A stretch of 61,258 nt of DNA from an uncultured Alphaproteobacteria bacterium (GCA_937888635.1 CALARG010000021.1:1-61258); one strand, 5' to 3'; numbered from the stretch's first letter, positions 3,462-54,176 are shown. The notes: generated by a model not told the origin, from the sequence alone. Made by a program: numbers and translations.

Positions 3462-3785
3462 TCCTTTCGTTTAAGGTTAAACACCAGATTACATTTCCGG
3501 TCATATAACATTTTATCAGGCATAAAATCCCAACCGCAAGGTCAAAGATTTTTGCAAAACCACCCATTTTATGATACAGTCCTGCGCATATACGAATCGT
3601 ATTTTCAACAAATCGTTTTATCAAACGCCCGCCCAAAGGGCGTTTTAGCACATTTGTTATAATTCGTTATAATTTTTAATAATTATTAAAAACAACTAAA
3701 TGCCGATTTTCTAAAATAAATTTAAAAAAATTTTTTCGCTAAACACGCACAAGATAAAATTAAAAGATAATAACACAGATAAACA

Positions 3786-7749: not shown

Positions 7750-8760
7750 TCAATACAGATTTTCTGCAAACATATCATCCAATAACCCATTCAAATTATT
7801 ACGAAATTCTTCTCTGTCAGATGCCCACACAACCTGGCGCATTAAAAATTTATAAACATCATCCATTGTTAAATTTGGGATTCCCGCATCACACGCAACG
7901 CGTCGCCACGCAGTTCGCGGGTCAATTAAGTGCACACCGCCACGCCCTGGGAATACCCAGTGTCCATCCTGTGGCATATCCTGCAACAAAACAATCGCCC
8001 GATCTGACAATGGACGCCCATCCCACATATCATGATTAAAATCCAAATCTTCCCACGCCATAGAAAATATTTTTGAACGCGGTGCGAAACCATAAATCAG
8101 CATATAAAACGCCGAACGCAAAATCAAATCTGGCACCCTATCAATCGCCGCAACCAGGCGATAAAATCCCGCACGATTTAGTGGGCGTATACGGCGGTTT
8201 TGCTGGATTTTTTCTAGCCCAACCACCGGGTTCGTTTTCACATACCCCATTTCCATTGCATAGTTAAAAACACTTTGCATAAATTCTTGCATACGACCTG
8301 CGATTGCACGTCCAGAAATACTTGCAATAACATTTTTTACATCTTCTGATTTAATATCAGCAATCTTTTTTTCAAACAAAGATTCCAAATGCCGATTTAC
8401 CGCCCGCACCAATTTTGCATGCGAATCTTCACCACGCCGAACCTTGTTCTGCAAATACAAATCCAAGAATTGTTTAAACGTTATCTTCTTGCGACGAATC
8501 GGGGGCTTTTTCATCGCAGCATCCAAAATATCTGGCACTGCACTGCGCGCATCTTCTATATCCACCTGGGGATAATTTCCGATTAAAATCCGTTTATCCT
8601 TGCCATGTACGCGTTTTCGCACAAAGAAAGTTTTTATTCCACGACTGGTCACATACATACGCAAACGCGGTTCTGAAATATCCTGGACGACATCAAATCC
8701 CTTGGCCGGCGCCGGCAAGTTGTCCAAGATATACGGATTAAAATAGAATTGGTGCGCCAT
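7750..8760 (-). CDS. P4-type integrase-like protein with an apparently degenerate catalytic site
   Basis: Arm-binding (DUF4102-like) N-terminus (LPAPAKGFDVVQD...RLRMYVTSRGIKTFFVRKR...IGNYPQVDIEDAR), a core-binding region, and box I Arg (GFAPRSKIFSMAWEDLDF). The HxxR box reads TMDDVYKFL, and no C-terminal H...Y nucleophile segment is visible. Confidence 0.7.
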   Translation of the reverse strand: MAHQFYFNPYILDNLPAPAKGFDVVQDISEPRLRMYVTSRGIKTFFVRKRVHGKDKRILIGNYPQVDIEDARSAVPDILDAAMKKPPIRRKKITFKQFLDLYLQNKVRRGEDSHAKLVRAVNRHLESLFEKKIADIKSEDVKNVIASISGRAIAGRMQEFMQSVFNYAMEMGYVKTNPVVGLEKIQQNRRIRPLNRAGFYRLVAAIDRVPDLILRSAFYMLIYGFAPRSKIFSMAWEDLDFNHDMWDGRPLSDRAIVLLQDMPQDGHWVFPGRGGVHLIDPRTAWRRVACDAGIPNLTMDDVYKFLMRQVVWASDREEFRNNLNGLLDDMFAENLY

Positions 8761-11881: not shown

Positions 11882-12457
11882 ATGAAATTTTCAGAATTTA
11901 TATTACAGAAATCCGAATCGCGTGGCTATTCATGGTTGGTTTTTTTCTTAACAATATGCGAATCCATATTTTTATTTATCCCACCCGAAGTCTTTATGAC
12001 CCCACCGATTATTGCGAACAAGCGGCGCGCCCTGCCCATAACAATCGCGGCATCCCTGGGGTCAATCGTTGGTGGTGCAATTGCATATATGATCGGATTG
12101 TGGCTGTATGATTCTGTTGGGGTATGGTTAATTGAAACATTTTCAAATCCAGAATTAATTGAAACCGCGATTAAGCCAATGTTTAACAAATACGGAATAA
12201 TGATAATTGTACTGACGGCGGTCACCCCAATACCTTATAAACTATTGGCAATATGGTTGGGCTTTATCGGATATCCAATGTTGCTGTTTTTGGCGGTATC
12301 GGCCATATTCCGCACCGGCCGCTTTGCAATAATTGCAACATTACTGTATTTTTTCCAAGAACGGGCAAACGCAATTGTAAACAAATACTTCTGGCCATTA
12401 ACAATTTGCGCAATCGTCGCCGCCGTACTAGGGATTGGTCTGATAAGCCTGTTTTAA
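11882..12457 (+). CDS. YqaA/DedA-type (SNARE-associated) inner-membrane protein
   Basis: Multi-TM protein. ...CESIFLFIPPEVFMTP...GGAIAYMIG is typical of the YqaA family. Start trimmed to ATG 11882. Confidence 0.7.
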   Translation: MKFSEFILQKSESRGYSWLVFFLTICESIFLFIPPEVFMTPPIIANKRRALPITIAASLGSIVGGAIAYMIGLWLYDSVGVWLIETFSNPELIETAIKPMFNKYGIMIIVLTAVTPIPYKLLAIWLGFIGYPMLLFLAVSAIFRTGRFAIIATLLYFFQERANAIVNKYFWPLTICAIVAAVLGIGLISLF

Positions 12458-13002: not shown

Positions 13003-14250
13003 TTATTTAACAATAGATTCCCATTTCAAACCTTTAGTTGCATTATCATATACCAATGCACATGTTGCAGTACCATTTTCACAAGCTTCAGGCACATTCA
13101 TCTTTGCAACCGGTGTTAACGCTGCACGTGATACAGAAATTACACCATCCACTTCCGAAACAGCAGATACATATTCACCTGCGACAGCAGTATCTGCCTT
13201 ATCTAAAGCTTCAATTTTTGATTTTGCATCTGCTTTTGCATCAGCCAAAGCTTGGTCTGCTTTTGATTTTGCATCTGCCGCTGCAGTAGAAATCGCTTCA
13301 GACTTTGCCGTTGCAATTGCTGTATTCATACCTGTTGTATTAGTATAATTCTTCAACTGCTCAGTAGTAAACGACTTCGCATTTGATTCCGCTGTATTCG
13401 CCTTTGATGCCGCATCTGTCGCTGCCGCTGCTTGTGCATTTGCAATTGCGGTTGCAACATCTGTCGCGCCATCCGCTAATGTACCAATTTTATTATCAAT
13501 CTGCTTTGAAACTGAATTATCACCAGTATTTAATGCGTCAATCTGTCCCTGCAATTCCGTTTTTGCTGCACTAACCTGACTGGTCGTCTCTCCCTTTGCC
13601 GCTGCAACCGCTTCAGACTTTGCCGTTGCAATATCACCAGTCAAAGTTGTTTTTTGCGAGGCCAACTCTTCCTTGGTTGCAGAATTTGTTTCCAAGTTCG
13701 CAACATCTAATTTTAAACCAGCAACATCTTGCTTTGTCCCTGACAACGCATTGGTAATTCTGGTATCAACATCGTTCGTCATGACTTCCAGCTTATTTTT
13801 TACATACCCTGCTACAGCCGCGGTTGTCGGCGCAACTGTTGAAGTATCATTCTTGTTTTCTCCATTCTCATTAATTTGCCCAACCAAATCACCCGTGGTC
13901 ACAGAAACTTTACCATCTGTTTCTGACACTGTCTTAACATATTTACCATCTGCAACAGTAATCGTATCAACATCTAACCCTTGAACAGCCGCAGCAATTT
14001 GTGTTGAAATAGAACCATTTGCACCACCAATCGCAGCAACATCCGCTTGCAATTTCGTAATATCGCCCTGATTCTTTGTGTTATCAGTTTCCAAACTTGT
14101 AACACGTGTGTTCATTGCATTATTATACCCTGTTGCTGTTGCTTCTGCTGCCTGCTTCGCTTTATCAACATAGTCTGTTGATGCGATATCCGCGTTTGCT
14201 GCGGTAACCGCCATCATCGCAACCAAAGATGCTGTTAAGATTTTTTTCAT
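13003..14250 (-). CDS. Secreted fibre-like protein P1 (415 aa), tail-fibre-type modules
   Basis: Signal peptide MKKILTASLVAMMAVTAANA, then DIASTDYVD. Ala/Thr/Lys-rich rod. C-terminal cap ...CENGTATCALVYDNATKGLKWESIVK. Confidence 0.8.
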   Translation of the reverse strand: MKKILTASLVAMMAVTAANADIASTDYVDKAKQAAEATATGYNNAMNTRVTSLETDNTKNQGDITKLQADVAAIGGANGSISTQIAAAVQGLDVDTITVADGKYVKTVSETDGKVSVTTGDLVGQINENGENKNDTSTVAPTTAAVAGYVKNKLEVMTNDVDTRITNALSGTKQDVAGLKLDVANLETNSATKEELASQKTTLTGDIATAKSEAVAAAKGETTSQVSAAKTELQGQIDALNTGDNSVSKQIDNKIGTLADGATDVATAIANAQAAAATDAASKANTAESNAKSFTTEQLKNYTNTTGMNTAIATAKSEAISTAAADAKSKADQALADAKADAKSKIEALDKADTAVAGEYVSAVSEVDGVISVSRAALTPVAKMNVPEACENGTATCALVYDNATKGLKWESIVK

Positions 14251-14305
14251 GTTTTCCTTCCTTTCTTTTTGTTTGTTTTGTTTATTCTCTCATTTGATAT
14301 GATTT

Positions 14306-14335
14306 ATTTTATCATAAAATGCGAATCGCTGTCTA
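14306..14335 (-). promoter_or_regulatory. Putative promoter of P1 with a GANTC palindrome in the spacer
   Basis: Minus strand reads TAGACA-gCGATTCGcattttaTGa-TAAAAT (18-nt spacer, extended -10). GCGAaTCGC lies at 14321-14329. Confidence 0.45.
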
Positions 14336-14347
14336 TAATAAAATTTC

Positions 14348-16024
14348 CTATTCCGTACGACCGGCAATATCTTCCCATGCATATTCATAGGTCACCTTGC
14401 CATCGACAGTAATTTTCTTGGCCGTTAATACAAATGTACCTTCGGCGTTTTCTGATGTTGGCGCCTGAATTGCCCCCGCCAGCAACGAATTAACATCCGA
14501 CGCCAATTGATCTGCACCAACTGCATTTTTCGCAATTGTATTCGCCGTCACGGCACCAGCAGCAATATTTCCTTCTAGCACTGCCCCCGTTGCCAAATTT
14601 CCTGCCTCAACCGCACTTTCACCAATCTTACCCTTGACGATTGCGCCATCTGCAATTTTATCCTTTGTCACCGCATTATTGGCAATCTTACCTTCTGTTA
14701 CTGCATTATTGGCAATCTTACCTTCTGTTACGGCCGCATCTGCCAATTGTGCAGTTCCAATTCCATTGTCCACAATTGAAACAACACCATTTGCAATAAC
14801 AATAACGCCTTCTTGCCCGGTCAGACTAACCTGTTTTGCATCCAATGCCGCCTGCAAACCGTCAACTTTTTCAATTGACAATGTTGGAATATCCGATTCT
14901 GCCAACTCTGCCCGTGACACAGTAATAACACCGTTTTCCTGGGATACCGCTGTTACGAACTGACCAGTTGTTGTCCCATCCGCAACATCCAATCCACCCA
15001 ATGCCTCTTGGATAGAATTTTCAACAGATCCAACCGTCGCGGCAGTATCATTCAACAAAGCAATTGCCGCCTTGTTATCATTAATCTGCGCAGTCAAGTT
15101 CTTAATAGAACCTTCTGCATTTTCCCCACCTTCTAAAATCGCGATAGTATCTGCATTTGCCTTGACCTGCGCATCCAATTTAATCGTTGCCGCTTTTAGT
15201 CCCGTTTGTTCATTCAAATAATTTGTACCCGAATATGTCACACCGGTCACATCCGCTGCATTTGCCTTTAGATCAATTTCACCCTGCAATTGCGTATCTG
15301 CTGCCTCGCGCGCAGATTTTTCTGCTGCGATTGCATCCGCATTTGTTTTAACCGCACCTGCTGCCAATTCAGAAACCTTGGAATCTGCATAGTTTTGCGC
15401 TGTTTTTAAAACACCAGTCTCGGCATTATTAATCGCCGCAATCGCAGATTCATTTGCCGCGACCTTAGCATCAGTTGCATCCAGCGCAGTTTTATCCGCC
15501 TTTGTCCCCAAGGCAGATTCAACTGTCACCCCATCACCCAGACCACCAATAGTTTCTTTGATATCCGCAACATTCGTCTTCAATGTAGAAACATCACCCT
15601 GCAAGGTTGCAACACCACCTGTCAAAATTCCAACCGCATTCTCGGCAATTTTAACCGTTGCCGCATACGATGGATAGTGTTCATTTTCCGTCCCTTCTGC
15701 AGGCGCAACAACAGCACCATTTGCGTCTGTCTTAACCAAATTAGCCTTTACCTGTTGGTCTGCAACCGCTGCATTAACCGCCGCATAAATATCAGCCGCC
15801 GTCACCAGGTTTGTCCCCTGTTCAGATACAGCACCTGTTTCAACAGACACAATATTATTTTCAATCTTTACCGGCCCAGTTGCGGTCATTTTTGTTTGCA
15901 CATCCGCCAATTCTGTTTTCAAAACATCATTTAAATATTCAGTTGAAACAACGGCTGCATCTGCAACACCCGCAGACACCAGCCCCAACAGTACAGAAAA
16001 AATACCCGCAGTTAATTTTCTCAT
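14348..16024 (-). CDS. Secreted fibre-like protein P2 (558 aa)
   Basis: Signal peptide MRKLTAGIFSVLLGLVSAGVADA, then AVVSTEYLNDV. Eight decapeptide repeats (xxAVTxGKIA). Cap ...GTFVLTAKKITVDGKVTYEYAWEDI. Confidence 0.8.
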   Translation of the reverse strand: MRKLTAGIFSVLLGLVSAGVADAAVVSTEYLNDVLKTELADVQTKMTATGPVKIENNIVSVETGAVSEQGTNLVTAADIYAAVNAAVADQQVKANLVKTDANGAVVAPAEGTENEHYPSYAATVKIAENAVGILTGGVATLQGDVSTLKTNVADIKETIGGLGDGVTVESALGTKADKTALDATDAKVAANESAIAAINNAETGVLKTAQNYADSKVSELAAGAVKTNADAIAAEKSAREAADTQLQGEIDLKANAADVTGVTYSGTNYLNEQTGLKAATIKLDAQVKANADTIAILEGGENAEGSIKNLTAQINDNKAAIALLNDTAATVGSVENSIQEALGGLDVADGTTTGQFVTAVSQENGVITVSRAELAESDIPTLSIEKVDGLQAALDAKQVSLTGQEGVIVIANGVVSIVDNGIGTAQLADAAVTEGKIANNAVTEGKIANNAVTKDKIADGAIVKGKIGESAVEAGNLATGAVLEGNIAAGAVTANTIAKNAVGADQLASDVNSLLAGAIQAPTSENAEGTFVLTAKKITVDGKVTYEYAWEDIAGRTE

Positions 16025-16054
16025 AATATTCCCTTCCTTTCTTTCGTATGGTAC

Positions 16055-16084
16055 ATTATATCATATTTGCCCGAATCGTGTAAA
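16055..16084 (-). promoter_or_regulatory. Putative promoter of P2 with a GANTC motif in the spacer
   Basis: Minus strand reads TTTACA-CGATTCGggcaaataTGa-TATAAT (18-nt spacer). Confidence 0.5.
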
Positions 16085-16111
16085 GACCAAAAAAAACACT
16101 TCTATATTTTT

Positions 16112-16144
16112 ATAAAAAAAACAGGGGCATTTTTTGCCCCTGTG
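16112..16144 (-). terminator. Rho-independent terminator after P3
   Basis: ACAGGGGCA-TTTTT-TGCCCCTGT with T8 on the minus strand. Confidence 0.7.
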
Positions 16145-16161
16145 TATTAGTCAAAAAATAA

Positions 16162-17094
16162 TTATAACGATAAAGCCAATTCCATCCAATATGGATCACC
16201 ATTCTGATCAACTGACAAAACACATTTTGCATGTGCACAATTTGTACCTGGTTTTGGAACCGCATAACCTTCAACTGTTTTTTTTGCAGTATTAGCGACC
16301 GACCCTTCTTCGGTATCAGCAGCATTCAATGTCGCAATTGCACCCTGATTGGTAACCGCAATTTCATTTGTCTTTGCCAAACCTTTTTCTGTATCGTTCA
16401 CAGCGTTTGTCAAATTCGTTAAATCAGTTGCCGATGCCTTGGTTGCGATATCCGCTTTATTCTGCGCAATATCTGCTTTGACCTGTGTATCATCATAGGT
16501 TGCAGCACTCTGCGCTTCTGTAATCATTTGAACAACTGTTTTATCCGCTGGGACATCACCAATTGTTGTTTTATCAGCCTTTCCACCCAACGCAGTTTCT
16601 AAGTCCTGAACCTGTGACTGCTGAATAACAGCATTTGCAATAGAATGTGCAACCGAACCACTTTCTGTCGCCGCGCCGTTCAATTTGGTAATCGCATTTT
16701 CATTTGCAGTAATTTTTAAGTCCTGCGCCTCATCAACTTCTGCCTGGGCTGTTTTAACTGCATTTATCTGCTGTTTAACAGAACCATCTTTATTTTCGTC
16801 ACCTGTCAATGTTGCAATAGAATTTTGAATATTTTGCATGTCTTCAGACCCAACCACACCTTCGGTCTTGGTATCCAATGCCTTAATCGCAGTCGCCACA
16901 TCAGAATAGGTAGCAGACCCAACTGTAAATCCACCCTGTGGAATTGTACCAACCTTGGTATCAACAACACCAACCTTTGCATCAACATAGCCCGTTGATG
17001 CAACGCTGATTGGGTCCGCTGCGTTTGCCGCACCTGCAACACTCATCAGGATTGCCGCCATAACACCACCAAACATAATATTTTTAATTTTCAT
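16162..17094 (-). CDS. Secreted fibre-like protein P3 (310 aa)
   Basis: Start trimmed to MKIKNIMFGGVMAAILMSVAGAANA (SD GAAAGGAA upstream), then VASTGYVDAKV. Cap ...TNCAHAKCVLSVDQNGDPYWMELALSL. Confidence 0.8.
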   Translation of the reverse strand: MKIKNIMFGGVMAAILMSVAGAANAADPISVASTGYVDAKVGVVDTKVGTIPQGGFTVGSATYSDVATAIKALDTKTEGVVGSEDMQNIQNSIATLTGDENKDGSVKQQINAVKTAQAEVDEAQDLKITANENAITKLNGAATESGSVAHSIANAVIQQSQVQDLETALGGKADKTTIGDVPADKTVVQMITEAQSAATYDDTQVKADIAQNKADIATKASATDLTNLTNAVNDTEKGLAKTNEIAVTNQGAIATLNAADTEEGSVANTAKKTVEGYAVPKPGTNCAHAKCVLSVDQNGDPYWMELALSL

Positions 17095-17170
17095 TATTAT
17101 TTCCTTTCTTTTCTTTCGTTTTTTATTTTTAAATGCCACCCCAAAATATTATGGGGTGACACTATTTATA

Positions 17171-18211
17171 TTAATTTGCAGCTGGCTTAATCGCATTGTC
17201 ACCATTCAATGTGATTTCATTACCGTCTTTGTCCAAAATCTTAATTGGCGCATATGATACAGCACCCGTTGCATCAAAATTCACCAGATATGTGCCCGCC
17301 GTAGTCACAACAGAAACCTTTTTAGCAATTTCTGCTGCATTATCTGCAATCCCCTGGGTATTTGTAGCAATCGCAGCAACTTTATCTGAATCAACACCTG
17401 AATTAACCGCCTTCATCTGTGTCTCATCCAACTTTGCCTGATAATTTTCGCTCAAATTCAAATTATCAATCGCTGTCTGAACATCATCTGCCGTCTGATA
17501 ACCTTTACCCTGCAATTCGGTTTCATCAACATATTTGCCATTTGCCAAGGCATCAGCAATAGACTTTGCAACCGAACCTTCTGTTTGCGCATCTGCATTC
17601 AATTTTGCGATACCCTCCGTATTACCCTTAACATCCTGCATCAGGGTTGCAATACCTTGGCTGCCGTTTCCACCACTCAAAGTATTAATCGCCGCGGTAT
17701 TCGCCTGAATATCAGATTCAGCTTCGGTCATACGTGTTGTCAAACCCGAAATATCTTCCTTGTTGGTTGTAATTTGAGCAACCGCCTCAGAATCAATCCC
17801 AGAATTAATTGCCGCCTGTTGTTCAGTCGTCAATGTATCCTGCTTACCTGCCAAGGCTTCCTGAACAGTAATATCTTCGCCCTGTTCATTCTGCAATGTC
17901 CCAATTTTCTGATCCAAGGCATCCGACACAGACACTACATTGCCTTCTGCGTCAACACCAATCTTCTGCTCCAACGCCTCTACAGATTGTTTTGTTGCCA
18001 ACGATGACAGGTCAACATTCGCAGAAATTGTTGTTGTGCCATCTGCCTGTTCTGCAATATCAATCCCCTGCCCTTCGGTCAATTTTGCCTGCAATTTTGC
18101 ATCAGCATAGTCTTTTGAAATCAAAGACACATCTGCCGCAACCGCTGCCCCACATACGGTCGCAAATACTGCCGCCGCAAAACCAGAAAACATAATATTT
18201 TTTACTTTCAT
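17171..18211 (-). CDS. Secreted fibre-like protein P4 (346 aa)
   Basis: Signal peptide MKVKNIMFSGFAAAVFATVCGAAVA, then LISKDYADAKL. Cap ...AGTYLVNFDATGAVSYAPIKIL. Confidence 0.8.
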   Translation of the reverse strand: MKVKNIMFSGFAAAVFATVCGAAVAADVSLISKDYADAKLQAKLTEGQGIDIAEQADGTTTISANVDLSSLATKQSVEALEQKIGVDAEGNVVSVSDALDQKIGTLQNEQGEDITVQEALAGKQDTLTTEQQAAINSGIDSEAVAQITTNKEDISGLTTRMTEAESDIQANTAAINTLSGGNGSQGIATLMQDVKGNTEGIAKLNADAQTEGSVAKSIADALANGKYVDETELQGKGYQTADDVQTAIDNLNLSENYQAKLDETQMKAVNSGVDSDKVAAIATNTQGIADNAAEIAKKVSVVTTAGTYLVNFDATGAVSYAPIKILDKDGNEITLNGDNAIKPAAN

Positions 18212-18248
18212 TTTTTCCTTCCTTTCCTTTTTTAATCTTTTGAATTTT

Positions 18249-19436
18249 TTACTTCAAAATCTCTACTGACAACCATGTCACATTACCTTCTGCATCAACA
18301 GACATCAGCAATGTTTCACCCGCCGCAGGCGTCCGGCCAGCAATCTTGTCCATTGTGACTGCCTTGGCATCAATATCTGCTGTTGCAACCATATCCTTGA
18401 ATGCCAACGCTTTTAAATCTGCAGTATTTGCCTTCTTGGCCAATTCCGCATTAACAGTCTCCGTTTTTGCATAAGACCCTAATTCTGACTTGGTCGCCAA
18501 ATCAGCAGTTGCCGTTGTAATTGCACCTTGAACCTGTTGTGCTGTTTGATAGCCTGCGGCCTCTAATGTATCAACGCGACCTTCAACCGCATCAACCGTT
18601 TCAATTGTTGCGTATGTCTTGGCAACATCTTCAGACTTTGCATAACTGCTCAGATCAATATTAGAAGAATCAATAACCGCCTGGTCAATCTTGGCATTCA
18701 AATCAGTAACCGCCGTTTCCAACGCAGACTTATCCGCCTTAGTTGCAATTGCCGCCTTGTTATCTGCAACATCCTTTAACAAACCAGAATCCGCCGAACC
18801 AACAACATTTGTTATCTGTTGTGTCACCTGCTGTTCTGTCACATATGTTTCTGATGCTGTTTTTTGCGTCACATATGTATTCTGGGCATCAGTTTTGGTC
18901 AGATAATTATTTGATATATTTTGTTCCAAATTCTGAATCGTTTCTGCCGATACCTTCTTTGCCAATTCTTCATCAACATATGATTTTTCTGCCAAGCCTT
19001 CCACCGATGGGATTTCTGGCTTGTCCGACAAACTGTTATATGAACCCGTTGTCGCCACTTCAGACAACCCCGAAATATTTTCCACCGCCAACGGATTTTC
19101 AGCCGTAATCACATCCTGCTTGCCCGCCATTTCCGAGTGCAACTCATTAATCGCCGGAATTGCCAGTTTTGCCTCTGTGTCTAACTGAATCCAGTTGTCA
19201 TCAGCATCTCTGCTATTCAACATATCACGCAACACAACCTGATTCTCAAAAAGCTGATTATCGTTTGTGTTCATGGTTCTGCTCATAGGCGTAGTTGTGC
19301 TATCAACATAGTCTATAACCTCAAAAAACAAATCATCTACATACTCTTCACTTGCGTAATTTTCCGCTGAATATGCCACATTAGACAATGCAACAAAAAT
19401 ACAAAACGGCAGCAAAAAAGATGTTTTCCTTGTCAT
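18249..19436 (-). CDS. Secreted fibre-like protein P5 (395 aa)
   Basis: Signal peptide MTRKTSFLLPFCIFVALSNVAYS, then YASEEYVDD. Contains VATTGSYNSLSDKPEIPS. Cap ...AGETLLMSVDAEGNVTWLSVEILK. Confidence 0.8.
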   Translation of the reverse strand: MTRKTSFLLPFCIFVALSNVAYSAENYASEEYVDDLFFEVIDYVDSTTTPMSRTMNTNDNQLFENQVVLRDMLNSRDADDNWIQLDTEAKLAIPAINELHSEMAGKQDVITAENPLAVENISGLSEVATTGSYNSLSDKPEIPSVEGLAEKSYVDEELAKKVSAETIQNLEQNISNNYLTKTDAQNTYVTQKTASETYVTEQQVTQQITNVVGSADSGLLKDVADNKAAIATKADKSALETAVTDLNAKIDQAVIDSSNIDLSSYAKSEDVAKTYATIETVDAVEGRVDTLEAAGYQTAQQVQGAITTATADLATKSELGSYAKTETVNAELAKKANTADLKALAFKDMVATADIDAKAVTMDKIAGRTPAAGETLLMSVDAEGNVTWLSVEILK

Positions 19437-19498
19437 TTTTCTTCTCTTATCAATATTTATATTAATTCCCAGCTGTACTATTAATTTAAATCACAACC

Positions 19499-21826
19499 CT
19501 ATATTTCAGGAACAGTACCACCAGAACTGCCACCAACAATGTCACTGGTCAATTTCCATGAATACGAACACTTCTTACTGGTACATGTTGCTGACAACAA
19601 ATATTTTCCAGTCCCTGGATTTTCTGGCGTCGCCATATAGCCTGCCAAATCATCCTGACTCGCAAAACCTTCTGTCGCTGTTGTAATTGCATTTTGAACA
19701 TCGGTTGATGTCTGATAACCAGCATTTTTCAAGTTGGTTATTTCGGTCGTGTTACCATTAACCAATGCCTGCAGGGCATCCAACGCAGATGTCGTTGCAT
19801 ATCCTGACAAATCAACACTACCACCCGATGCAGCACCTGCAATCTTCTCGTCAACTTCTGCCTTGGTATAAACATTTGATGTTTTTGCATATTCTGCCAA
19901 TGAATCAGAAACCGCCTTCAATGCAGTTGCCGTCGCATAGTCACCCGACGCCTGTTTGTTGGCAATTTGCGCTTCTAAATTCGTACGCAGGGTCTCCAAT
20001 TCTTCACTTGTCACCAAATCATTCAACGCGCTTGCATCTGCCTTGGTTGCCAATTCTGCTTTGGTCGCCAGATTTGCCGTTGATGGAATTTCCGACTTGG
20101 TCGCATAATCATCCAACGCCGCACTGGTAATATACCCTGCATCATTTGTAAACACAGAAACATCAGTTGGCACAGTTGGAATCAAGGCCTTGACCCCATT
20201 AATCGCCGCAGTTAATTCCGCATCAGACGCATAGGTATCACCTAAATTATTAATTGCTGTCTGCAATGCAGTCACAGTCGCAACATCTGCCTTGCCTGAC
20301 TGCAAATCAGAAATCGCGGCATTAATTCCTGCCAGATCTGCTTCTTCTAAATAATCGCCCGCATCTTGCTTTGCTGCGATTTTATCTTCTAATGCCTGCA
20401 ATTCTGCACTGGTCGCCAATCCCGCAATTGATGGGATTTCCGGTTTATCCGACAAACTGTTATATGAACCCGTTGTTGCGACTGCCGCCAAATCACCTGT
20501 CTTGGCATAATCGGCCAACTCGGCCTTGGTTGCCAAATCTGCCGTTGCTGTCGTAATTGCACCCTGAACATCTGTTGATGTCTGATAACCAGCACTCTTT
20601 ATCGCGTTAATCTCAGACGCATTCCCACTCACTAACAGCTGCAGGGCCTCCAAGTCAGATGTTTTTGCATATCCGGACAAATCAATCTGACCTCCCGAAA
20701 CCGCATCTGCAATCTTCTGATCAACTTCTGCCTTGGTATAAGAATCACCCTTTAAATCTGCCAACGAATCAGAAACCGCCTTCAACGCAGTCGCCGTCGC
20801 ATAGTCACCCGACGCCTGTTTGTTGGCAATTTGCGCTTCTAAATTCGTACGCAGGGTCGCCAATTCTTCACTTGTCACCAAATCATTCAACGCGCTCGCA
20901 TCTGCCTTGGTTTCCAATTCTGCCTTGGTCGCTAAATTCGCTGTTGATGGAATATCTGTCAACTTGGCATAACCATCCAAACTTGGGATTTGAATTGCCA
21001 AAATCGCATTCTGTAATCTGGTTTCAACTTCACTCAATTCACCCTTTGTTGAATAAGTATTCCCCAAATTATTAATCGCTGTCTGCAATGCTGTGACCGT
21101 GCTTGCATCTGCCTTGTCAGATTCCAGTGCATTAACCGCATTCTGCAATTCCGCCAAATCAGATTCTTCTAAATAATCACCTTTATCCTGCTTTTCTGCG
21201 ATTGCGGCTTCCAATGTTGTCTTTAATGTATTTAACGCACTTGCATTTGCCTTCAGCAACAATTTCGCATCCACATCATCAACCGTTGCATACTGACTCA
21301 AATCAATCGCCTTGACCGCAGCATCCACCACACCAATCGCATCTCGCAAATCCTGTTCAGTCGCATTCAATTCGCTTTTCTTCGCATAATCCGCACTAAT
21401 CGTCGCAACCGACGCCTGCAAACTTTCAATCGCAGCCTTATCCGCACCACCTGTTTGCAAAGTCTCTACTGTATTTTTTAATTCCTGCAATTGCGCCGCT
21501 GTCGCATAATCACCCGCCGCATGCTTGGCTGAAATTTCTGCCTGCAACGCCCTTTCCAAGGCCGCCAAATCACTATGCGTTGCAAAATTCTTAAAATCAG
21601 GCATATCATGCTTTAACAAGAAGTTTGAAACATCCAGTGTTGACTTAACAACATTATCGGAAATTTCAATCCCTTCACCCGCGGTCAGGACATTTTGTTT
21701 CTGCGCCAAAGCATCATCAACATAAGTTTTACTGGCCAGATTAACAGTCGCCGCACTTGCCACACCGGCAACCGACGCCAAGATCGTTGCCATAACACCA
21801 GAAAATACAATATTATTAATTCTCAT
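19499..21826 (-). CDS. Secreted fibre-like protein P6 (775 aa), internally duplicated
   Basis: Signal peptide MRINNIVFSGVMATILASVAGVASA, then LASKTYVDDAL. Contains TTGSYNSLSDKPEIPS and VFTNDAGYITS. ~290-aa internal duplication. Cap ...GKYLLSATCTSKKCSYSWKL. Confidence 0.85.
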   Translation of the reverse strand: MRINNIVFSGVMATILASVAGVASAATVNLASKTYVDDALAQKQNVLTAGEGIEISDNVVKSTLDVSNFLLKHDMPDFKNFATHSDLAALERALQAEISAKHAAGDYATAAQLQELKNTVETLQTGGADKAAIESLQASVATISADYAKKSELNATEQDLRDAIGVVDAAVKAIDLSQYATVDDVDAKLLLKANASALNTLKTTLEAAIAEKQDKGDYLEESDLAELQNAVNALESDKADASTVTALQTAINNLGNTYSTKGELSEVETRLQNAILAIQIPSLDGYAKLTDIPSTANLATKAELETKADASALNDLVTSEELATLRTNLEAQIANKQASGDYATATALKAVSDSLADLKGDSYTKAEVDQKIADAVSGGQIDLSGYAKTSDLEALQLLVSGNASEINAIKSAGYQTSTDVQGAITTATADLATKAELADYAKTGDLAAVATTGSYNSLSDKPEIPSIAGLATSAELQALEDKIAAKQDAGDYLEEADLAGINAAISDLQSGKADVATVTALQTAINNLGDTYASDAELTAAINGVKALIPTVPTDVSVFTNDAGYITSAALDDYATKSEIPSTANLATKAELATKADASALNDLVTSEELETLRTNLEAQIANKQASGDYATATALKAVSDSLAEYAKTSNVYTKAEVDEKIAGAASGGSVDLSGYATTSALDALQALVNGNTTEITNLKNAGYQTSTDVQNAITTATEGFASQDDLAGYMATPENPGTGKYLLSATCTSKKCSYSWKLTSDIVGGSSGGTVPEI

Positions 21827-21850
21827 CTCTTCCTTCCTTTTAGCAACCTG

Positions 21851-22756
21851 TTAGTCAACCAGAACATCAACCCATTCCATTTTACCTTCTGCATTTTTCT
21901 GCAACATCAAGAAACCATTCTCGCCCACAGCTTCAGCCGCACCACCAAAATTCAGTTTGTCAGCACCGACAGAATCATCTGGAATTTCATAATCTAACAA
22001 AGCCTCGTTAACTGTTTCTTCAACGACCAAATTAACCGTCTCTTCTACAATAGGCACAACATCATCTTTCTTGGCATAATCACCCAACAAAGTATCCGTT
22101 TCTTCCTTGGTATAGTATTTATCCTGAACCCCATCCAAGGCCGCCTGCAACGCATCAATTTCTGCCATACCCACAAAGTCAGTTGCCAAATCATAAACCA
22201 TAACATCTTCGCCCTGCACAACCGTCAGAACACCATCTGCATATTCAACCGTTGTTGAACCGCCTGTTATCTGTGATAAATCTGCCGCCAACGCATCAAC
22301 ATCCAACTTAATCGCATCTAACTGTTCGGAAACACTTTCACCATTTTCACTAAAACCAACAAAGCTTTCCAGTTCTTCTACACGTTCGCGCAAATCGTTA
22401 CCTGAACTGCCCGCACCTGGCTTATTCGCCCCAGAAATTGAAGACCCACCACTAATCGCACTGGACCCAGACAAGTATTTACCAATTGACAAACGCGGCG
22501 TTGACGCTGCACGCGTTGAGCCCGAGCGGGTCGCCCCCGTATTTGCACCTGCAACATTATTCACGCGCATTGACCCCGCACGCACAGAATTAATTGCACC
22601 ACCATCCGACTTGGCCGCCGCCGCGCCAGATGCACTGGTATATGTTCCTGCCCCGCCCAGCGCACGCACCGAAGACGCACCAAAAGAAGGCATCGCCACA
22701 GATGCACACAACACACAAACGATTGACAGCGTTGATATTTTCAGTTCATTTCTCAT
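21851..22756 (-). CDS. Secreted fibre-like protein P7 (301 aa) with a Gly/Ser/Ala/Arg-rich N-terminal region
   Basis: Signal peptide MRNELKISTLSIVCVLCASVAMPSFG, low-complexity region (SVRAGSMRV..TRSGSTRAAS), then a coiled segment. Cap ...GENGFLMLQKNAEGKMEWVDVLVD. Confidence 0.75.
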   Translation of the reverse strand: MRNELKISTLSIVCVLCASVAMPSFGASSVRALGGAGTYTSASGAAAAKSDGGAINSVRAGSMRVNNVAGANTGATRSGSTRAASTPRLSIGKYLSGSSAISGGSSISGANKPGAGSSGNDLRERVEELESFVGFSENGESVSEQLDAIKLDVDALAADLSQITGGSTTVEYADGVLTVVQGEDVMVYDLATDFVGMAEIDALQAALDGVQDKYYTKEETDTLLGDYAKKDDVVPIVEETVNLVVEETVNEALLDYEIPDDSVGADKLNFGGAAEAVGENGFLMLQKNAEGKMEWVDVLVD

Positions 22757-22781
22757 ATTGCATTCTCTCTACTTGTTTTCA

Positions 22782-22811
22782 ATTTTATCACAATCAGCGA
22801 ATCGGGGTCAA
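22782..22811 (-). promoter_or_regulatory. Putative promoter of P7 (and probably P6-P4) with a GANTC motif in the spacer
   Basis: Minus strand reads TTGACC-cCGATTCGctgattgTGa-TAAAAT (18-nt spacer, extended -10). Confidence 0.5.
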
Positions 22812-39971: not shown

Positions 39972-41258
39972 TTATTTGCATTCTTCTGTTAACTGTTTAA
40001 TCTGTGCCGCCAAAACCAAATCAGATGCAACATTCTTTTCAATTTGTTTGATTGCATACAAAACTGTTGCATGATCACGACCACCAACAAAATTACCAAT
40101 TTCTGACAAAGACAACTGTGTCGCACCCTTTAAAACAACCATCATAATCTGACGTGCCAAAACCAAATTGCGGCTGCGACCTGTGCCACAAACTGCATCA
40201 TAAGACACACCCAATTTTTCACACATCATTTTAACCATCGCAACCGGTGTTTTTACAGTTTGCAAAGAATCTGCCAACAAACGTGTTGCAATTGCCATAT
40301 CAACACTTGTGCCCATCAGTTCAGCATATGTCTTGATTTTTGTTGCGATACCTGCCAGCAAATGACCATCATTTGCAATACGCCCCGCCAAGGTATCTGC
40401 AACATCAGATTTCACACCTGCGCGTTTCAACAAAACAGATTTTACATGTGTGTTTGGCGCAACAACATCTGCAACCAATCCTGATGCCATCAGGCTTTGT
40501 GCACGACGATCAAAACCTGTCAAATTGCCTGGCATTGCATTTGCAGTCAGAACAACATTCTTGCCAGCATTACGCAAATCAACAATCAATTGAATAAATT
40601 CTTCTGTTGTTGCCTTTTTACCTGACAGGGCCTGAACATCATCCAAGATAAAGGTATCGCAATTGCGACAGAAATCCTTGAACGCAAAAACATTGTGTTC
40701 TTTCAAACTGCGTGCAAATTCAGAAACAAATTGTGCGCCACTCATCTTAACAACTTTTGATGTTGCTGCCCCTGCGATACATTCTGTCAACAAAGATTTA
40801 CCACAACCTGCCGCACCATAAATAAACAGCGGGGAAAAAGGAACCGAACCCGCTGCGACTTTTTTACATGCAGATACAACAAACAAATTTTCATCTGAAC
40901 AAACAAAAGAATCAAATGCAACCGATGTGGCTGTTGCTTTTTCAGCCGCTGGCGCATATGCCTGTGCACGATTGTCATTTGCAACCGGTGCCGCAACTGT
41001 CTGTTTGGCAGACGCAACAACAACAGACGCATTCAGACCAAATTCCGCCGCAACTGCTGCAATTGTCCCCATATGAACACTGTTGATAAAATCTGCTGAA
41101 AACTGATTCTGTGCACCCAAAACCAAAGTTCCATCAACAACATCAAAAGCCAGTGGTGCAATCCAAGAAGTATAAGACGCTGCATCAATTTTCGCGGCAA
41201 TGGCCCCCTTGATTGTTTCCAGGTTAGTCATTTGAATTTTTGCCGCTGTTGTCTGCAT
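39972..41258 (-). CDS. dnaA: Chromosomal replication initiator DnaA
   Basis: Domain I (SYTSWIAPL), an AAA+ core (Walker A GAAGCGKS; box VII), and C-terminal DNA-binding ...GGRDHATVLYAIKQIE. Start trimmed to Met28. Confidence 0.9.
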   Translation of the reverse strand: MQTTAAKIQMTNLETIKGAIAAKIDAASYTSWIAPLAFDVVDGTLVLGAQNQFSADFINSVHMGTIAAVAAEFGLNASVVVASAKQTVAAPVANDNRAQAYAPAAEKATATSVAFDSFVCSDENLFVVSACKKVAAGSVPFSPLFIYGAAGCGKSLLTECIAGAATSKVVKMSGAQFVSEFARSLKEHNVFAFKDFCRNCDTFILDDVQALSGKKATTEEFIQLIVDLRNAGKNVVLTANAMPGNLTGFDRRAQSLMASGLVADVVAPNTHVKSVLLKRAGVKSDVADTLAGRIANDGHLLAGIATKIKTYAELMGTSVDMAIATRLLADSLQTVKTPVAMVKMMCEKLGVSYDAVCGTGRSRNLVLARQIMMVVLKGATQLSLSEIGNFVGGRDHATVLYAIKQIEKNVASDLVLAAQIKQLTEECK

Positions 41259-41617
41259 GCCGTTTTCTCCTTTTTCCTTCCTTTCAAAAGAGTTTCCTGC
41301 CCGAACAAGGTTGTAAAAACCACCCACACAAAACACCATTTTTCAATTGAATCACGGTATTTTATATTGCCCTACTTTAAACTCTCTCGCGCCATTAATG
41401 TTTTTTGGATTAATTTTATTTTAGACATTTAAAATAAAACCAATCCTGTTTTTTTGATTACCTTTTTCTCGTTTTGGATACGACAGATAAGTTAAAATAT
41501 TATTTTCCATTTACAAGCAAATCTTGCCCCAAAATTTCACTTTTATTTTTTGACAACGATTCGTTTTTTTGCCTATTTTCTGCCCTTTGTATATACACTG
41601 TATAGACAATTTTTTTA

Positions 41618-42649
41618 TCACACACGAACATACCCGCCATCAACTTTTCGCACTAAACCTTGCAATTCTAAAACAACCAATTCAGATTTAATTTCCGAAA
41701 CAGATTTTTTGACAAGTTCTGCCAATACAGATTCTGACACCGGAATCATCCCTAATGCGTCAATCAGATTATTTTCCGCATCAACTTTTTTTGATATTTT
41801 TTGTTGTTTTTTATCCGCATCAAAAAAATCCATCAGTCCCATACACAGATGCGCCTGTCCATCCCGAATCAATGAATTTGGTCCCAACGCGCGCAAATCT
41901 GCGGGGTGTGACGGAATCGCCCAAACATCGCGCCCCATTTCAATTGCGAATCGGGCGGTTGTCATTGATCCCGACTTTAAATCAGCCTCGCCCAAAATCA
42001 ATTTTTCCCCCAAACCTGCGACTAACTTGTTTCTTTGCACAAAGTTTGTGGCAACCGGCACAAATCCAACGGGCATTTCACTAACAACCGCGCCACGCGC
42101 CAATATTTCATGGTATAACGATTCGTTTTCCATTGGCCAGACATAGTCCACCCCACCCGCCAGCACAGCAATCGTCACGGCATTCGCCCCACTGCGCAAC
42201 GCACCACGATGTGCTGCCGTATCTGTCCCAATTGCCATACCAGACACAACCGCATAATTATTTTCTGCAAACCCTTGGGCAATATCTGCAACAAAACCCA
42301 TGCCCACCGCTGTTGCGTGACGCGTTCCAACAATTGATACCATCGGTCTGTTTAATACATCTAGATTCCCACGCACAGATATAATCGGCGGATGATTTTT
42401 GACCGCACGCAAATTTTTCGGATACCGTGTGTCTGTATCATCTATATAATATATATGTTGCGCATGCGCCGATTCCATTTCACGCAAAACAGAATCGCGA
42501 TGCGCGGAATCTGGGTTTAAAAATTCAACCACTGCCCCCGGCGCACCAAAACGACGCAACAAATCGTTATATCGCGCTGGTCCAATCCCCGGTGTTCGCA
42601 ATATCAATAACTTATTAAATATATCTGACATGACAACACTATAGGACAA
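41618..42649 (-). CDS. dprA: DNA-processing protein DprA (Smf)
   Basis: GIGPARYNDLL..., Rossmann core ...VSGMAIGTDTAAHRGAL... Confidence 0.88.
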   Translation of the reverse strand: MSYSVVMSDIFNKLLILRTPGIGPARYNDLLRRFGAPGAVVEFLNPDSAHRDSVLREMESAHAQHIYYIDDTDTRYPKNLRAVKNHPPIISVRGNLDVLNRPMVSIVGTRHATAVGMGFVADIAQGFAENNYAVVSGMAIGTDTAAHRGALRSGANAVTIAVLAGGVDYVWPMENESLYHEILARGAVVSEMPVGFVPVATNFVQRNKLVAGLGEKLILGEADLKSGSMTTARFAIEMGRDVWAIPSHPADLRALGPNSLIRDGQAHLCMGLMDFFDADKKQQKISKKVDAENNLIDALGMIPVSESVLAELVKKSVSEIKSELVVLELQGLVRKVDGGYVRV

Positions 42650-45560: not shown

Positions 45561-45707
45561 TTACACCTTTTATGTAAAACTGTGCGTTCTCTGCCCGTCC
45601 CCCGATTCGGCTTAATTGTTGCACAAATCCGCGCCCTGTCAAGATTTTGTATTAAAAAACCAAAAAAACATGCTATAATTCAACCAAAGAAAAAAAAGGA
45701 AAGTCTG

Positions 45708-46652
45708 ATGACATATACTGAATTGGGACTGGTTAATACAAACGAAATGTTTCGTGATGCAATCGCACGCAACTACGCCGTACCTGCATTTAACTTCTAT
45801 AACATGGAAACATTACAGGCGATTTTAAACGCCGCCCGCATCACACACAGCCCCATCATATTGGCGGTATCTGAATCTGCATTAAAATATATGGGCGCAG
45901 ATATGCTGGCTGGAATGATACGCGGTGCAAACATTTCGCCCGACGATAAAATTGCACTGCACCTGGATCACGGAACCAGTTTTGACGCATGTGCACGCGC
46001 GATTGAAATCGGATTTTCATCCGTCATGATTGATGCCAGCAAATTACCATTTGACGAAAATGCCACACTTTCACGCCGCGTCGCAGAATACGCCCATAAA
46101 TATAATGTATCGGTTGAAGCAGAACTGGGGTTACTGGCGGGAATAGAAGATGAAAACACAAAATCTGATTTTTCCAGTTATACAAATCCATCAGATGTTG
46201 AAAAATTTGTAAACGCAACTGGCATTGATTCACTGGCAATCGCAATCGGCACCAGTCACGGCGCATACAAACGCAAAAAAGAAGACGAAGAACTGCGTTT
46301 TGACATACTGGCCAATGTTGCCACGCGCCTGCCCGGTTTTCCTTTGGTATTACATGGCGCATCAAACATACCACAAAAACTAATAACAACAATTAATGAA
46401 TTTGGTGGCAAATTATCTGGCGCGCGTGGTATTGATGAAATCCAACTGCGCCGTGCAACAAAAATGAATATATGTAAAATAAATGTAGACAGTGACCTGC
46501 GCCTGGGCTTTACCGCCGCAGTACGCAAATCATTATATGAAAAGCCGGAAAACTTTAACCCACGTGAATTCTTATCCCCCGCCCGCGACACCATGACCCA
46601 AATATGCATTGATGAAATCCGCAATATCATGGGATCCGAAGACAAAATTTAA
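45708..46652 (+). CDS. fba: Class II fructose-bisphosphate aldolase
   Basis: YAVPAFNF.., HLDHG, SVMIDAS, VEAELG, GTSHGAY motifs. Start trimmed to MTYTELG (ATG 45708). TGcTATAAT lies at 45671-45679. Confidence 0.92.
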   Translation: MTYTELGLVNTNEMFRDAIARNYAVPAFNFYNMETLQAILNAARITHSPIILAVSESALKYMGADMLAGMIRGANISPDDKIALHLDHGTSFDACARAIEIGFSSVMIDASKLPFDENATLSRRVAEYAHKYNVSVEAELGLLAGIEDENTKSDFSSYTNPSDVEKFVNATGIDSLAIAIGTSHGAYKRKKEDEELRFDILANVATRLPGFPLVLHGASNIPQKLITTINEFGGKLSGARGIDEIQLRRATKMNICKINVDSDLRLGFTAAVRKSLYEKPENFNPREFLSPARDTMTQICIDEIRNIMGSEDKI

Positions 46653-54092: not shown

Positions 54093-54146
54093 AATACTAC
54101 TCCTGTTTCCTTATAAAATTTGTGTGACCTACACTCTTTTACCCCA

Positions 54147-54176
54147 ACTTTACCAAAAAACCCCGATTCGGTGCAA
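54147..54176 (-). promoter_or_regulatory. Putative dnaN promoter with a GANTC palindrome in the spacer
   Basis: Minus strand reads TTGCAC-CGAATCGgggttttttgg-TAAAGT (18-nt spacer). CCGAtTCGG spans 54163-54171. Confidence 0.5.

Follow-up and report, generated by a model that had tools for sequence, protein, structure and literature searches.

CGAWTCG, a promoter heptamer at a fixed position in Enterousia-like gut alphaproteobacteria, compared with the CcrM/GcrA system

Related sites in described systems

The closest described counterpart of the element considered here is the CcrM/GcrA system of Caulobacter, where GcrA prefers sites of the form YGAKTCK or YGAKTCG (Haakonsen 2015, PMC4647560; Wu 2023, PMC9976885) and uses single monomer sites lying in the spacer between -35 and -10 or just past the TSS, the site classes being centred at -20 +/- 1 or -30 +/- 2, or located from +2 to +30 (PMC4647560, PMC9976885). 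The gcrA/ccrM module is often missing from reduced alphaproteobacterial lineages (PMC3885167). The DNA analysed in this work (61,258 nucleotides, hereafter the window) derives from a Candidatus Enterousia-like gut alphaproteobacterium of the order Rs-D84, and the genome of the Enterousia lineage is reduced to about 0.9 Mb (PMC12306168). The heptamer CGAWTCG occurring in its promoters shares with CcrM/GcrA an alphaproteobacterial host, a GANTC core, a fit to YGAKTCK/YGAKTCG, which had been proposed for it and which holds on one strand, and a single site per promoter; also in common are the location of sites in the spacer or just past the TSS, their presence in a subset of sigma70 promoters and their association with replication genes, the dnaA region included. 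The two differ in that CGAWTCG is a true palindrome with strict C and G flanks and exclusively W at its centre, TGATTCG being depleted, whereas in CcrM/GcrA the central N is free with K preferred, good sites there including GAGTC ones, e.g., TGAGTCG; CGASTCG is here depleted. The predicted centre of the spacer sites, at -26/-27 when the TSS is presumed to lie 7 nt after the -10, falls between the -20 +/- 1 and -30 +/- 2 classes, roughly on the other face of the helix. Moreover, the enrichment here is genome-wide, coding sequence included, and is accompanied by purged half-sites, with generic GANTC free of intergenic bias; to our knowledge, coding enrichment and half-site purging have no precedent in CcrM organisms.

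Other systems offer partial parallels. The Dam/GATC switches of Gammaproteobacteria, acting on pap pili with Lrp and on agn43 with OxyR, are likewise located in regulatory regions of surface adhesins or fibres, and GATC also clusters at dnaA and oriC; they nonetheless involve another motif, another phylum and several GATC sites overlapping those of a competing regulator, in contrast to the single site in fixed register found here. Odd-length palindromes with a degenerate centre are also targets of type II enzymes (HinfI, GANTC; TfiI, GAWTC; RsrII, CGGWCCG), and a palindrome of 7 bp that is strict apart from its central W has the form usual for type II targets, whether of methylation or of restriction, rather than that of an HTH operator. 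Restriction targets are normally under-represented, whereas CGAWTCG is not avoided and exceeds its expected frequency more than any other 7-mer. As in Dcm/Vsr repair (CCWGG in E. coli), a palindrome is over-represented and its near-cognate neighbours are depleted, but the depletion extends here beyond deamination products, C>A being affected as much as C>T and C>G being neutral. MerR-type promoters also hold a cis-element within an over-long spacer (here conserved at 18 nt); their dyads of about 18-20 bp, however, fill a spacer of 19-20 bp, as opposed to the 7 bp found here, and species devoid of the heptamer keep the 18 nt. A literature search for the heptamer, or for an enzyme of CGAWTCG specificity, returned nothing relevant.

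Heptamer-bearing promoters and their conservation

CGAWTCG is a real, selected promoter element, located at a fixed position in a subset of promoters. The original prediction had placed it in three promoters of fibre-like surface protein genes, P1, P2 and P7, all of which lie where it had put them, with minus-strand sequences identical to those it had quoted.

P1 promoter, 14306-14335, minus strand: TAGACA-g-CGATTCG-cattttaTGa-TAAAAT, heptamer at 14322-14328
P2 promoter, 16055-16084, minus strand: TTTACA-CGATTCG-ggcaaataTGa-TATAAT, heptamer at 16072-16078
P7 promoter, 22782-22811, minus strand: TTGACC-c-CGATTCG-ctgattgTGa-TAAAAT, heptamer at 22798-22804
Seven paralogous fibre-like genes, 13003..22756, minus strand: 21851-22756, 19499-21826, 18249-19436, 17171-18211, 16162-17139, 14348-16024 and 13003-14250

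The predicted layout (-35, 0-1 nt, CGATTCG, 10-11 nt, TGnTAnAAT, with a spacer of 18 nt) is common to the three promoters, which constitute the top three sigma70 consensus matches within 11-24 kb, each with the TG of an extended -10. They are alike only in -35, heptamer and -10, the remainder being dissimilar. Downstream of P1 is the gene of a 415-aa surface protein (14250 to 13003) followed by a terminator (12984-12963); P2, with a terminator ahead of it (16143-16121), precedes the gene of a 558-aa surface protein (16024 to 14348), and P7 precedes a surface-protein unit of five genes (22756 to 16162). The fibre-like proteins are secreted, Ala/Thr-rich and mostly helical, with signal peptides and repeats visible in their translations. 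They had no match in Pfam or NCBIfam, and an AlphaFold model of one of them suggests mostly long helices at low confidence (pLDDT 54); among the matches listed, the 380 homologues were all 'hypothetical' and the full-length ones came from the Enterousia clade. Nothing in the fibre promoters pointed to phase variation.

The heptamer of P1 is kept in L004, L006 and L019, that of P2 in 12 species, and that of P7 in 42 of 42 orthologous promoters, i.e., those of the first gene in the fibre cluster. In the latter the heptamer is constant although the 3-7 nt following it are variable, and its register moves by 1 bp within a spacer that remains 18 nt long. Three species (L020, L036 and L045) retain the P2 promoter, its 18-nt spacer included, with a mutated heptamer, and the heptamer is therefore not a core promoter element. 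Nor is it confined to the fibre genes, to which the prediction had tied it, as dnaN, a lipoprotein gene, the suf operon and the region upstream of dnaA are also marked. Its other intergenic sites in the window are the following.

Intergenic heptamer, 3593-3599, minus strand: 132 nt upstream of a gene (3461 to 2673), overlying the -35 position of a candidate TATCAT -10, placed by eye
Heptamer near rbfA, 11914-11920, minus strand: about 120 nt upstream of rbfA (11792 to 11430), with TATAAA/ATATAA 10-11 nt on
Block upstream of dnaA, 41545-41605, strand not assigned: TTGACAa-CGATTCG-T7...GTATATAC, heptamer at 41557-41563
Lipoprotein gene promoter, 45575-45650, minus strand: TTGACA-N16-(TGc)AACAAT-N5-CGAATCG, gene 45560 to 45204
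dnaN promoter, 54141-54176, minus strand: cTTGCAC-CGAATCG-N11-(TGg)TAAAGT, heptamer at 54164-54170, driving dnaN (54092 to 52974)

The dnaN heptamer, which relative to transcription has the opposite central base from P1, P2 and P7, is present in 22 of 22 orthologues, the most distant species included. Located about 220 nt from dnaA (39972-41339, minus strand), the dnaA-upstream block keeps its heptamer in L033 and in 9 of the 9 metagenome loci that could be evaluated, where DnaA identity is 58-87%, and the position of its plus-strand -10 varies between loci. In the lipoprotein promoter the heptamer (45603-45609) covers roughly +1 to +7 relative to the predicted TSS, and the block cccCGATTCG-N7-8-ATTGTTGCACAAA is common to more than 10 species. 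The heptamer at 11914-11920 may fall in the 5' end of a plus-strand ORF with a VTT domain. The window gave no match when scanned for Rfam families and tRNAs. In a hold-out of 10 kb the sole intergenic heptamer was CGAATCG-N11-TGgTATACT, upstream of the suf operon.

The window holds 23 copies of CGAWTCG; dinucleotide shuffles gave 6.78 +/- 2.74, and none of the 100 reached 23. Eight copies are fully intergenic (3593, 11914, 14322, 16072, 22798, 41557, 45603 and 54164) where 0.25-0.34 are expected (Poisson P = 3e-9), and they comprise all four of the further non-coding copies originally reported. The intergenic enrichment that had been anticipated holds in the window for CGAWTCG (1.12/kb vs. 0.30/kb in coding sequence) and fails for generic GANTC (2.61/kb vs. 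2.83/kb); in the relatives (80 species, 1.45 Mb in total) the corresponding values for CGAWTCG are 0.74/kb and 0.21/kb. Copies in promoter register, dnaN included, number four, against 0.007 by chance in about 35 intergenic promoters. The suggested positional bias was recovered in 81 sequences, with 60 cases in which a -10 lies 10-11 nt 3' of the heptamer, 51 of these having an extended -10 TG, and about 2-8 cases at most other spacings; in the same sequences a -35-like hexamer precedes the heptamer by 0-1 nt in 74 instances. Secondary peaks of the spacing appear only at 19 nt (P7-type sites, opposite strand) and at 4-6 nt, the latter having been considered as a separate '-20' class and rejected as mostly an artefact of TATGAT, which in these very promoters overlaps the extended -10. 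About 10 other strong extended -10 promoters of the window have no heptamer, and 4 of about 12-15 strong ones carry it. The observation is overall stronger than originally stated.

Genome-wide enrichment and sequence specificity

Among the 80 related species the heptamer tops the list of over-represented 7-mers, with 404 copies against 160 expected (z = 19) and values of 2.5-2.8 times expectation; an independent 90 kb set repeats the enrichment. In coding sequence it was found 264 times against 97 +/- 10 under synonymous shuffling, an excess of about 2.7-fold seen in five of the six frame/orientation classes. A codon-pair artefact was rejected in view of this spread over the classes and of the coupled flanks, which cover three codons. 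Coding copies turn over fast, each of 151 positions being occupied in less than 20% of the orthologues. The word being enriched genome-wide, something therefore recognises CGAWTCG everywhere, as an enzyme would.

The specificity is narrow, with only W at the centre and strictly C and G as flanks on both sides. The half-sites CGAWTC[A/T] and [A/T]GAWTCG are reduced to 0.35-0.54 with row totals unaltered; of the one-off neighbours AGAWTCG stands at 0.48 and TGAWTCG at 0.44, C>G is neutral, and transitions at inner positions are not depleted. VSP-type repair was rejected as the cause of half-site depletion, since AGAWTCG is as reduced as TGAWTCG. TGATTCG, the best GcrA site of Caulobacter, is reduced to 0.44, and CGASTCG (CGAGTCG/CGACTCG) was seen 6 times against 15-16 expected in the relatives, with no copy in the window. 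GAGTC/GACTC is scarce, with 4 copies in the window; a PleI/MlyI-like restriction system was considered as the cause and rejected, GAG/CTC being avoided about 5-fold in general; GAGTC fits the order-2/3 Markov expectation (252 vs. 300 and 272).

Possible readings of the heptamer

By analogy, we tentatively favour the view that CGAWTCG is a methylation-type cis-element and that sigma70 promoters are where it is read, much as in the CcrM/GcrA system of Caulobacter, to which it may belong; we regard this as plausible, if slightly short of probable. The data show that the heptamer exists, where it is located, that it is conserved, that only some promoters carry it and that it is enriched genome-wide at the DNA level, while its methylation, the proteins that would write and read it, and whether they would activate or repress are what we infer. 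The heptamer would constitute a lineage-wide cis-regulatory word of the Enterousia/Rs-D84 clade, written most likely by an adenine methyltransferase of GANTC/GAWTC type (CcrM-, HinfI- or TfiI-like) whose specificity would have widened to the 7-bp palindrome, and recognised at promoters by a small monomer that associates with sigma70 and acts in a GcrA-like manner. Two sets of promoters would respond, the first with a single copy set against the -35 hexamer in the 18-nt spacer and centred near -26/-27, the second with the heptamer at about +1 to +7. Passage of the replication fork would leave the site hemimethylated, and the firing of the promoters would be coupled to replication state, the target genes being the three fibre-like surface protein units, dnaN, the lipoprotein gene, the suf operon and the block upstream of dnaA. 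The epigenetic or cell-cycle control originally suggested is partly supported, and a link to replication or the cell cycle fits the occurrence of the heptamer at dnaN and upstream of dnaA. It counts against this explanation that the promoters do not have the look of activator dependence, since they are near-consensus with an extended -10. The reduced genome of a lineage whose reduced relatives among the Alphaproteobacteria tend to lack gcrA/ccrM, the departures from Caulobacter in specificity and site centre, the lack of intergenic enrichment of generic GANTC, and the coding enrichment with purged half-sites also weigh against it.

No ccrM and no gcrA turned up in the DNA searched, which comprised the window, 93 related loci and the 10 kb past the right end and amounts to less than 10% of the genome of about 0.9 Mb. 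The search for a CcrM-type beta-class N6-adenine methyltransferase consisted of tblastn with residues 16-151 of 6PBD, a scan for the DPPY motif, Pfam on about 50 proteins of the window and a walk along both sides of the contig. The window, the 93 related loci and the 10 kb right flank contained no DPPY methyltransferase motif, and the GcrA (PF07750) DNA-binding domain of 7YE1 had no match in the window or in the 93 related loci. At less than 10% of the genome, the missing ccrM, gcrA and DPPY motif represent weak evidence against the CcrM/GcrA-like explanation. A more far-reaching possibility, rather unlikely, is that the Rs-D84/Enterousia order possesses a hitherto undescribed 7-bp-specific epigenetic system on CGAWTCG, evolved from CcrM/GcrA or replacing it, which would gate a surface-coat, replication and Fe-S regulon in fixed register and in addition shape the genome. 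Full sites would then pile up opportunistically in genes and half-sites would be purged, implying either a repair drive or another function acting genome-wide, for which no counterpart has been described.

The W-only centre and strict flanks, unlike CcrM/GcrA, together with the fixed register, the strict conservation and the presence in a promoter subset only, would suit an operator of a clade-specific regulator unrelated to methylation, an operator for another regulator being the alternative raised in the original prediction. The regulator could be a small repressor that occupies the spacer of otherwise strong promoters and controls a surface-protein, replication and Fe-S regulon. Such a regulator would have to work with 7 bp, very short for a lone sequence-specific factor, and with a central base in either orientation to transcription, that of dnaN being opposite to the fibre promoters. 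Near-consensus promoters lend themselves to repression, and the window and the 93 related loci (part of the less than 10% of the genome covered) yielded no methyltransferase; the 2.7-fold coding excess in nearly all frames, the turnover and the half-site depletion are nevertheless unexpected for a transcription-factor site, and we consider the operator unlikely.

The DNA-level enrichment, the half-sites at 0.35-0.54 with unaltered row totals and the quick turnover of the 151 coding positions speak instead for a methyltransferase target with a mainly genome-wide role (strand discrimination, replication or chromosome maintenance, or a restriction-modification or repair system driving sequence evolution), whose promoter copies would be secondary, with methylation tuning the spacer DNA directly and no GcrA-like reader. 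The absolute conservation in fixed register over dozens of species is left unexplained by such a role alone, which makes it improbable in our judgement. The W-centred palindromic 7-mer has the form of a type II recognition site and heptamers are found at dnaA and dnaN, but restriction targets are usually avoided whereas the heptamer is enriched, and its neighbour spectrum, with C>A as reduced as C>T, is unlike that of deamination (VSP) repair. Finally, a core element (an extended -35/spacer) for the RNA polymerase or sigma70 of the lineage, or a heritage of duplicated fibre promoters, is very unlikely and as a core element largely refuted: although the heptamer adjoins the -35 in all cases and the three fibre genes are paralogous, about 10 equally strong promoters lack it, P2 without it is still promoter-like in three species, it also occurs at about +1 and in the unrelated dnaN and suf promoters, P1, P2 and P7 are dissimilar outside -35, heptamer and -10, and it is enriched within genes.

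Enterousia/Rs-D84 are uncultured gut bacteria with reduced genomes whose regulation is almost unstudied, and CGAWTCG provides a first handle on it: it defines a computable regulon in which dnaN and the dnaA region are linked with the secreted, fibre-like coat of the surface, and predicts a specific methylation motif. If the heptamer is read by a GcrA-like factor, as we tentatively favour, the CcrM/GcrA paradigm would reach a deep, reduced lineage with changed specificity; otherwise, a GANTC-containing promoter word would have arisen independently. A puzzle of its own is why the word should be enriched across the genome and its half-sites purged, which may point to an undescribed sequence-specific process of maintenance or repair.

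Replication arms were considered as the reason why the central base switches along the window and were rejected, the GC skew being negative throughout with no switch. A cluster of heptamers in four rumen-lineage loci, considered as a possible origin, was found to lie inside fba, on conserved E-S, D-S and R-F dipeptides.

Promoters of the fibre-like genes

The "fibre genes" of the window are seven tandem paralogues (13003..22756) encoding secreted, Ala/Thr/Asp-rich products, for which no Pfam or NCBIfam match was obtained. Among the matches listed, their homologues (n = 380) are "hypothetical" throughout and full-length ones occur within the Enterousia clade only. A single-sequence AlphaFold model was poor (pLDDT 54) and consisted mostly of long helices; the putative identity as fibre-like surface proteins is plausible. 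Three promoters of these genes carry the heptamer CGAWTCG, and their positions and sequences are exactly those of the original prediction. No other sequences within 11-24 kb match the sigma70 consensus as well, and all three combine an extended -10 with a spacer of 18 nt:

14335-14306, minus strand: P1, TAGACA-g-CGATTCG-cattttaTGa-TAAAAT
16084-16055, minus strand: P2, TTTACA-CGATTCG-ggcaaataTGa-TATAAT
22811-22782, minus strand: P7, TTGACC-c-CGATTCG-ctgattgTGa-TAAAAT
16143-16121: intrinsic terminator
12984-12963: intrinsic terminator

Promoters and terminators together delimit three transcription units, of five genes (P7), one gene (P2) and one gene (P1). Several of the paralogues have in common N-terminal signal peptides and a short C-terminal two-cysteine motif (e.g., ...C.....C...W); the 558-aa member contains a 30-bp tandem repeat (14652-14731), the 10-residue unit of which matches NNAVTEGKIA repeats in translation.

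With the neighbouring FtsE protein as query, 80 related loci were retrieved (FtsE identity 73-98%), and every one of them stems from a gut or rumen MAG that bears the label Candidatus Enterousia or "Alphaproteobacteria bacterium". Enterousia is placed in the uncultured order Rs-D84; genome sizes are 0.75-1.0 Mb (PMC12306168). When the distance of every heptamer to -10-like hexamers was tabulated over the window and these loci (1.45 Mb pooled), a sharp peak appeared at 10-11 nt (n = 60, 51 with the extended -10 TG), a -35-like hexamer lay 0-1 nt 5' of the heptamer in 74 cases, and the central base on the promoter strand was T in 54 of 60. The heptamer was present at the P7-type promoter in 42/42 species, at the dnaN promoter in 22/22 and at the P2-type promoter in 12/33, most of the remaining species having no promoter of their own there. 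In the promoter footprints the 3-7 nt 3' of the heptamer vary freely while the heptamer itself is invariant, and in one sub-clade it lies 1 nt nearer the -35 and 1 nt farther from the -10, so that the 18-nt spacer is kept. The lipoprotein-gene promoter (window site 45603) shows a conserved second arrangement, TTGACA-N16-TGcAACAAT-N5-8-CGAATCG, with the heptamer at a predicted ~+1 to +7. In a hold-out of 10 kb of new sequence past the right end, the sole intergenic heptamer (CGAATCG-N11-TGgTATACT) stands in a promoter 35 nt upstream of the suf operon. As judged from comparative sequence, the heptamer is under selection and holds a fixed position as a promoter element.

Abundance of the heptamer and its variants

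The window contains 23 copies of CGAWTCG, where dinucleotide shuffles give 6.8 ± 2.7. The intergenic excess suggested earlier was borne out by an exhaustive count (8 fully intergenic copies vs. 0.25-0.34 expected, P = 3e-9), and four copies (P1, P2, P7 and dnaN) stand in the fixed promoter register, where ~0.007 would be expected by chance. Generic GANTC, for which coding and intergenic DNA were also to be compared, had no intergenic bias. In the pooled data no other 7-mer comes near the heptamer in over-representation (404 vs. 160 expected from a maximal-order Markov model; z = 19), the strong coupling of the two flanks of C-GAWTC-G being expressed in the same figures, and it also ranks first among the 64 NNNWNNN palindromes; intergenic DNA holds 0.74 copies per kb and coding DNA 0.21. 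The enrichment was repeated in an independent 90-kb set. Within genes it is 2.7-fold (264 vs. 97 ± 10 in synonymous-codon shuffles) and seen in five of six frame/orientation classes; these copies arise opportunistically on E-S, D-S and R-F/I dipeptides, and the 151 positions, each occupied in <20% of orthologous contexts, indicate no positional conservation.

In the pooled loci the half-sites CGAWTC[A/T] and [A/T]GAWTCG are reduced to 0.35-0.54 (2-3-fold depleted), neither CGAWTCC nor GGAWTCG departs from expectation, and the totals per row (C-GAWTC-N) are at background level, as if half-sites had been turned into full sites. Deamination repair was rejected as the source of the depletion, as the neighbour spectrum does not fit. 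GAWTC outnumbers GASTC in the window by 168 to 4; the near absence of GAGTC/GACTC is accounted for by GAG/CTC alone, which is avoided 5-fold in general (6812 observed vs. 36480 zero-order and 16624 first-order expectation, window and 80 loci), and is not site-specific. In the same data AG/CT is likewise avoided and GATC is reduced to 0.34 of dinucleotide expectation. In four distant rumen lineages (L064, L072, L076, L079) the heptamer is 6-10-fold enriched (12-18 copies per 20 kb), with occasional tandem or overlapping copies such as CGAATCGCGAATCG, vs. 2-3-fold in most Enterousia loci.

Comparison with CcrM and GcrA

The observation behind the original prediction was confirmed and generalised (80 loci, hold-out), while its interpretation, epigenetic or cell-cycle control of the fibre genes or an operator for another regulator, is partly supported. 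GcrA prefers the methylated site TGATTCG, more broadly YGAKTCK, with sites clustering near -20 and +2 to +30 (Haakonsen et al., PMC4647560); its DNA-binding domain binds as a monomer between the -35 and the -10, with site centres at -20 ± 1 and -30 ± 2 (Wu et al., PMC9976885). The heptamer likewise has a GANTC core, fits YGAKTCK on one strand, stands singly in the spacer or just past the predicted TSS, marks a subset of promoters only and is tied to the dnaA region. The best-supported mechanism is that the heptamer works like a promoter word of GcrA/CcrM type, a reading that we hold tentatively and with family membership putative.

The differences are several. The free central base, a defining CcrM/GcrA feature, was not found on testing, the centre being strictly W (CGASTCG 6 vs. 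16 expected); both the C and G flanks are obligatory, the GcrA-preferred TGATTCG is depleted and the heptamer centre is predicted at -26/-27. Generic GANTC has no intergenic bias here, and the heptamer is enriched inside genes, which is not known from CcrM organisms. A methylation-independent regulator is conceivable, though unlikely; a methyltransferase that acts chiefly genome-wide and has no reader of its own is similarly doubtful, set beside the fixed spacing at promoters. Neither a beta-class methyltransferase nor GcrA is encoded in the window, 93 related loci and the right flank, which cover <10% of the ~0.9-Mb genome (DPPY/GcrA motifs, Pfam, and tblastn queries checked against PDB 6PBD and 7YE1). 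Lineages acquire or lose gcrA and ccrM as a pair, which is absent mainly from reduced obligate symbionts (PMC3885167); the presence of these genes here is not to be assumed.

A core-promoter element or shared ancestry is largely refuted and highly improbable. Outside the -35, heptamer and -10, P1, P2 and P7 have no sequence in common and are therefore not duplicated DNA. The heptamer is not a core promoter element; it is missing from ~10 further strong promoters of the window that have an extended -10 and spacers of 16-17 nt, and in three P2 orthologues it alone has diverged, the -35, the extended -10 and the 18-nt spacing being retained:

L020, ~17098, minus strand: P2 orthologue with CAATTAG
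L036, ~17262, minus strand: P2 orthologue with AACATAG
L045, ~20570, minus strand: P2 orthologue with AACTATG

These are natural "mutants", usable for expression comparison.

The dnaA region and other gene content

Upstream of dnaA (41545-41605) lies a non-coding block in which TTGACAA-CGATTCG is followed by a T-run and by GTATATAC, a perfect palindrome. In a metagenome scan anchored on DnaA, it was kept in 9/9 evaluable loci (L084-L092), down to 58% DnaA identity, and it is also present in L033, one of the 80 loci; the -10 position is not conserved and no obvious promoter was found on either strand. GC skew is strongly and uniformly negative across the whole 61 kb (-0.13 to -0.32), and as no switch occurs despite the presence of dnaA and dnaN, the replication origin is probably not adjacent to dnaA.

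The window is ordinary chromosome; its genes include rpsG, fabF, mltG/yceG, lepA, rbfA, ftsE, tolB, dnaJ, gyrB/parE, dnaA, dprA, plsY, a class-II aldolase gene, a trxB-like gene, serS, typA, dnaN, uvrC and others, and no tRNA was found anywhere in it. The aldolase gene (45582-46652, plus strand) clearly belongs to the class-II fructose-bisphosphate aldolase family (PF01116, E = 6e-93); Rs-D84 genomes are described as having no fructose-bisphosphate aldolase (PMC12306168), and the gene may be another family member or have been overlooked in that survey. An ORF at 7750-8760 (minus strand) with phage-integrase arm-binding and central domains, and no catalytic-domain match, may be an integrase remnant. 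Just past the right end of the window, in its flank (L097:10905-13550), are genes for a secretin and a TcpQ-like protein, which, taken with dprA (41618-42649), may point to a type IV pilus or a DNA-uptake apparatus in this reduced genome.
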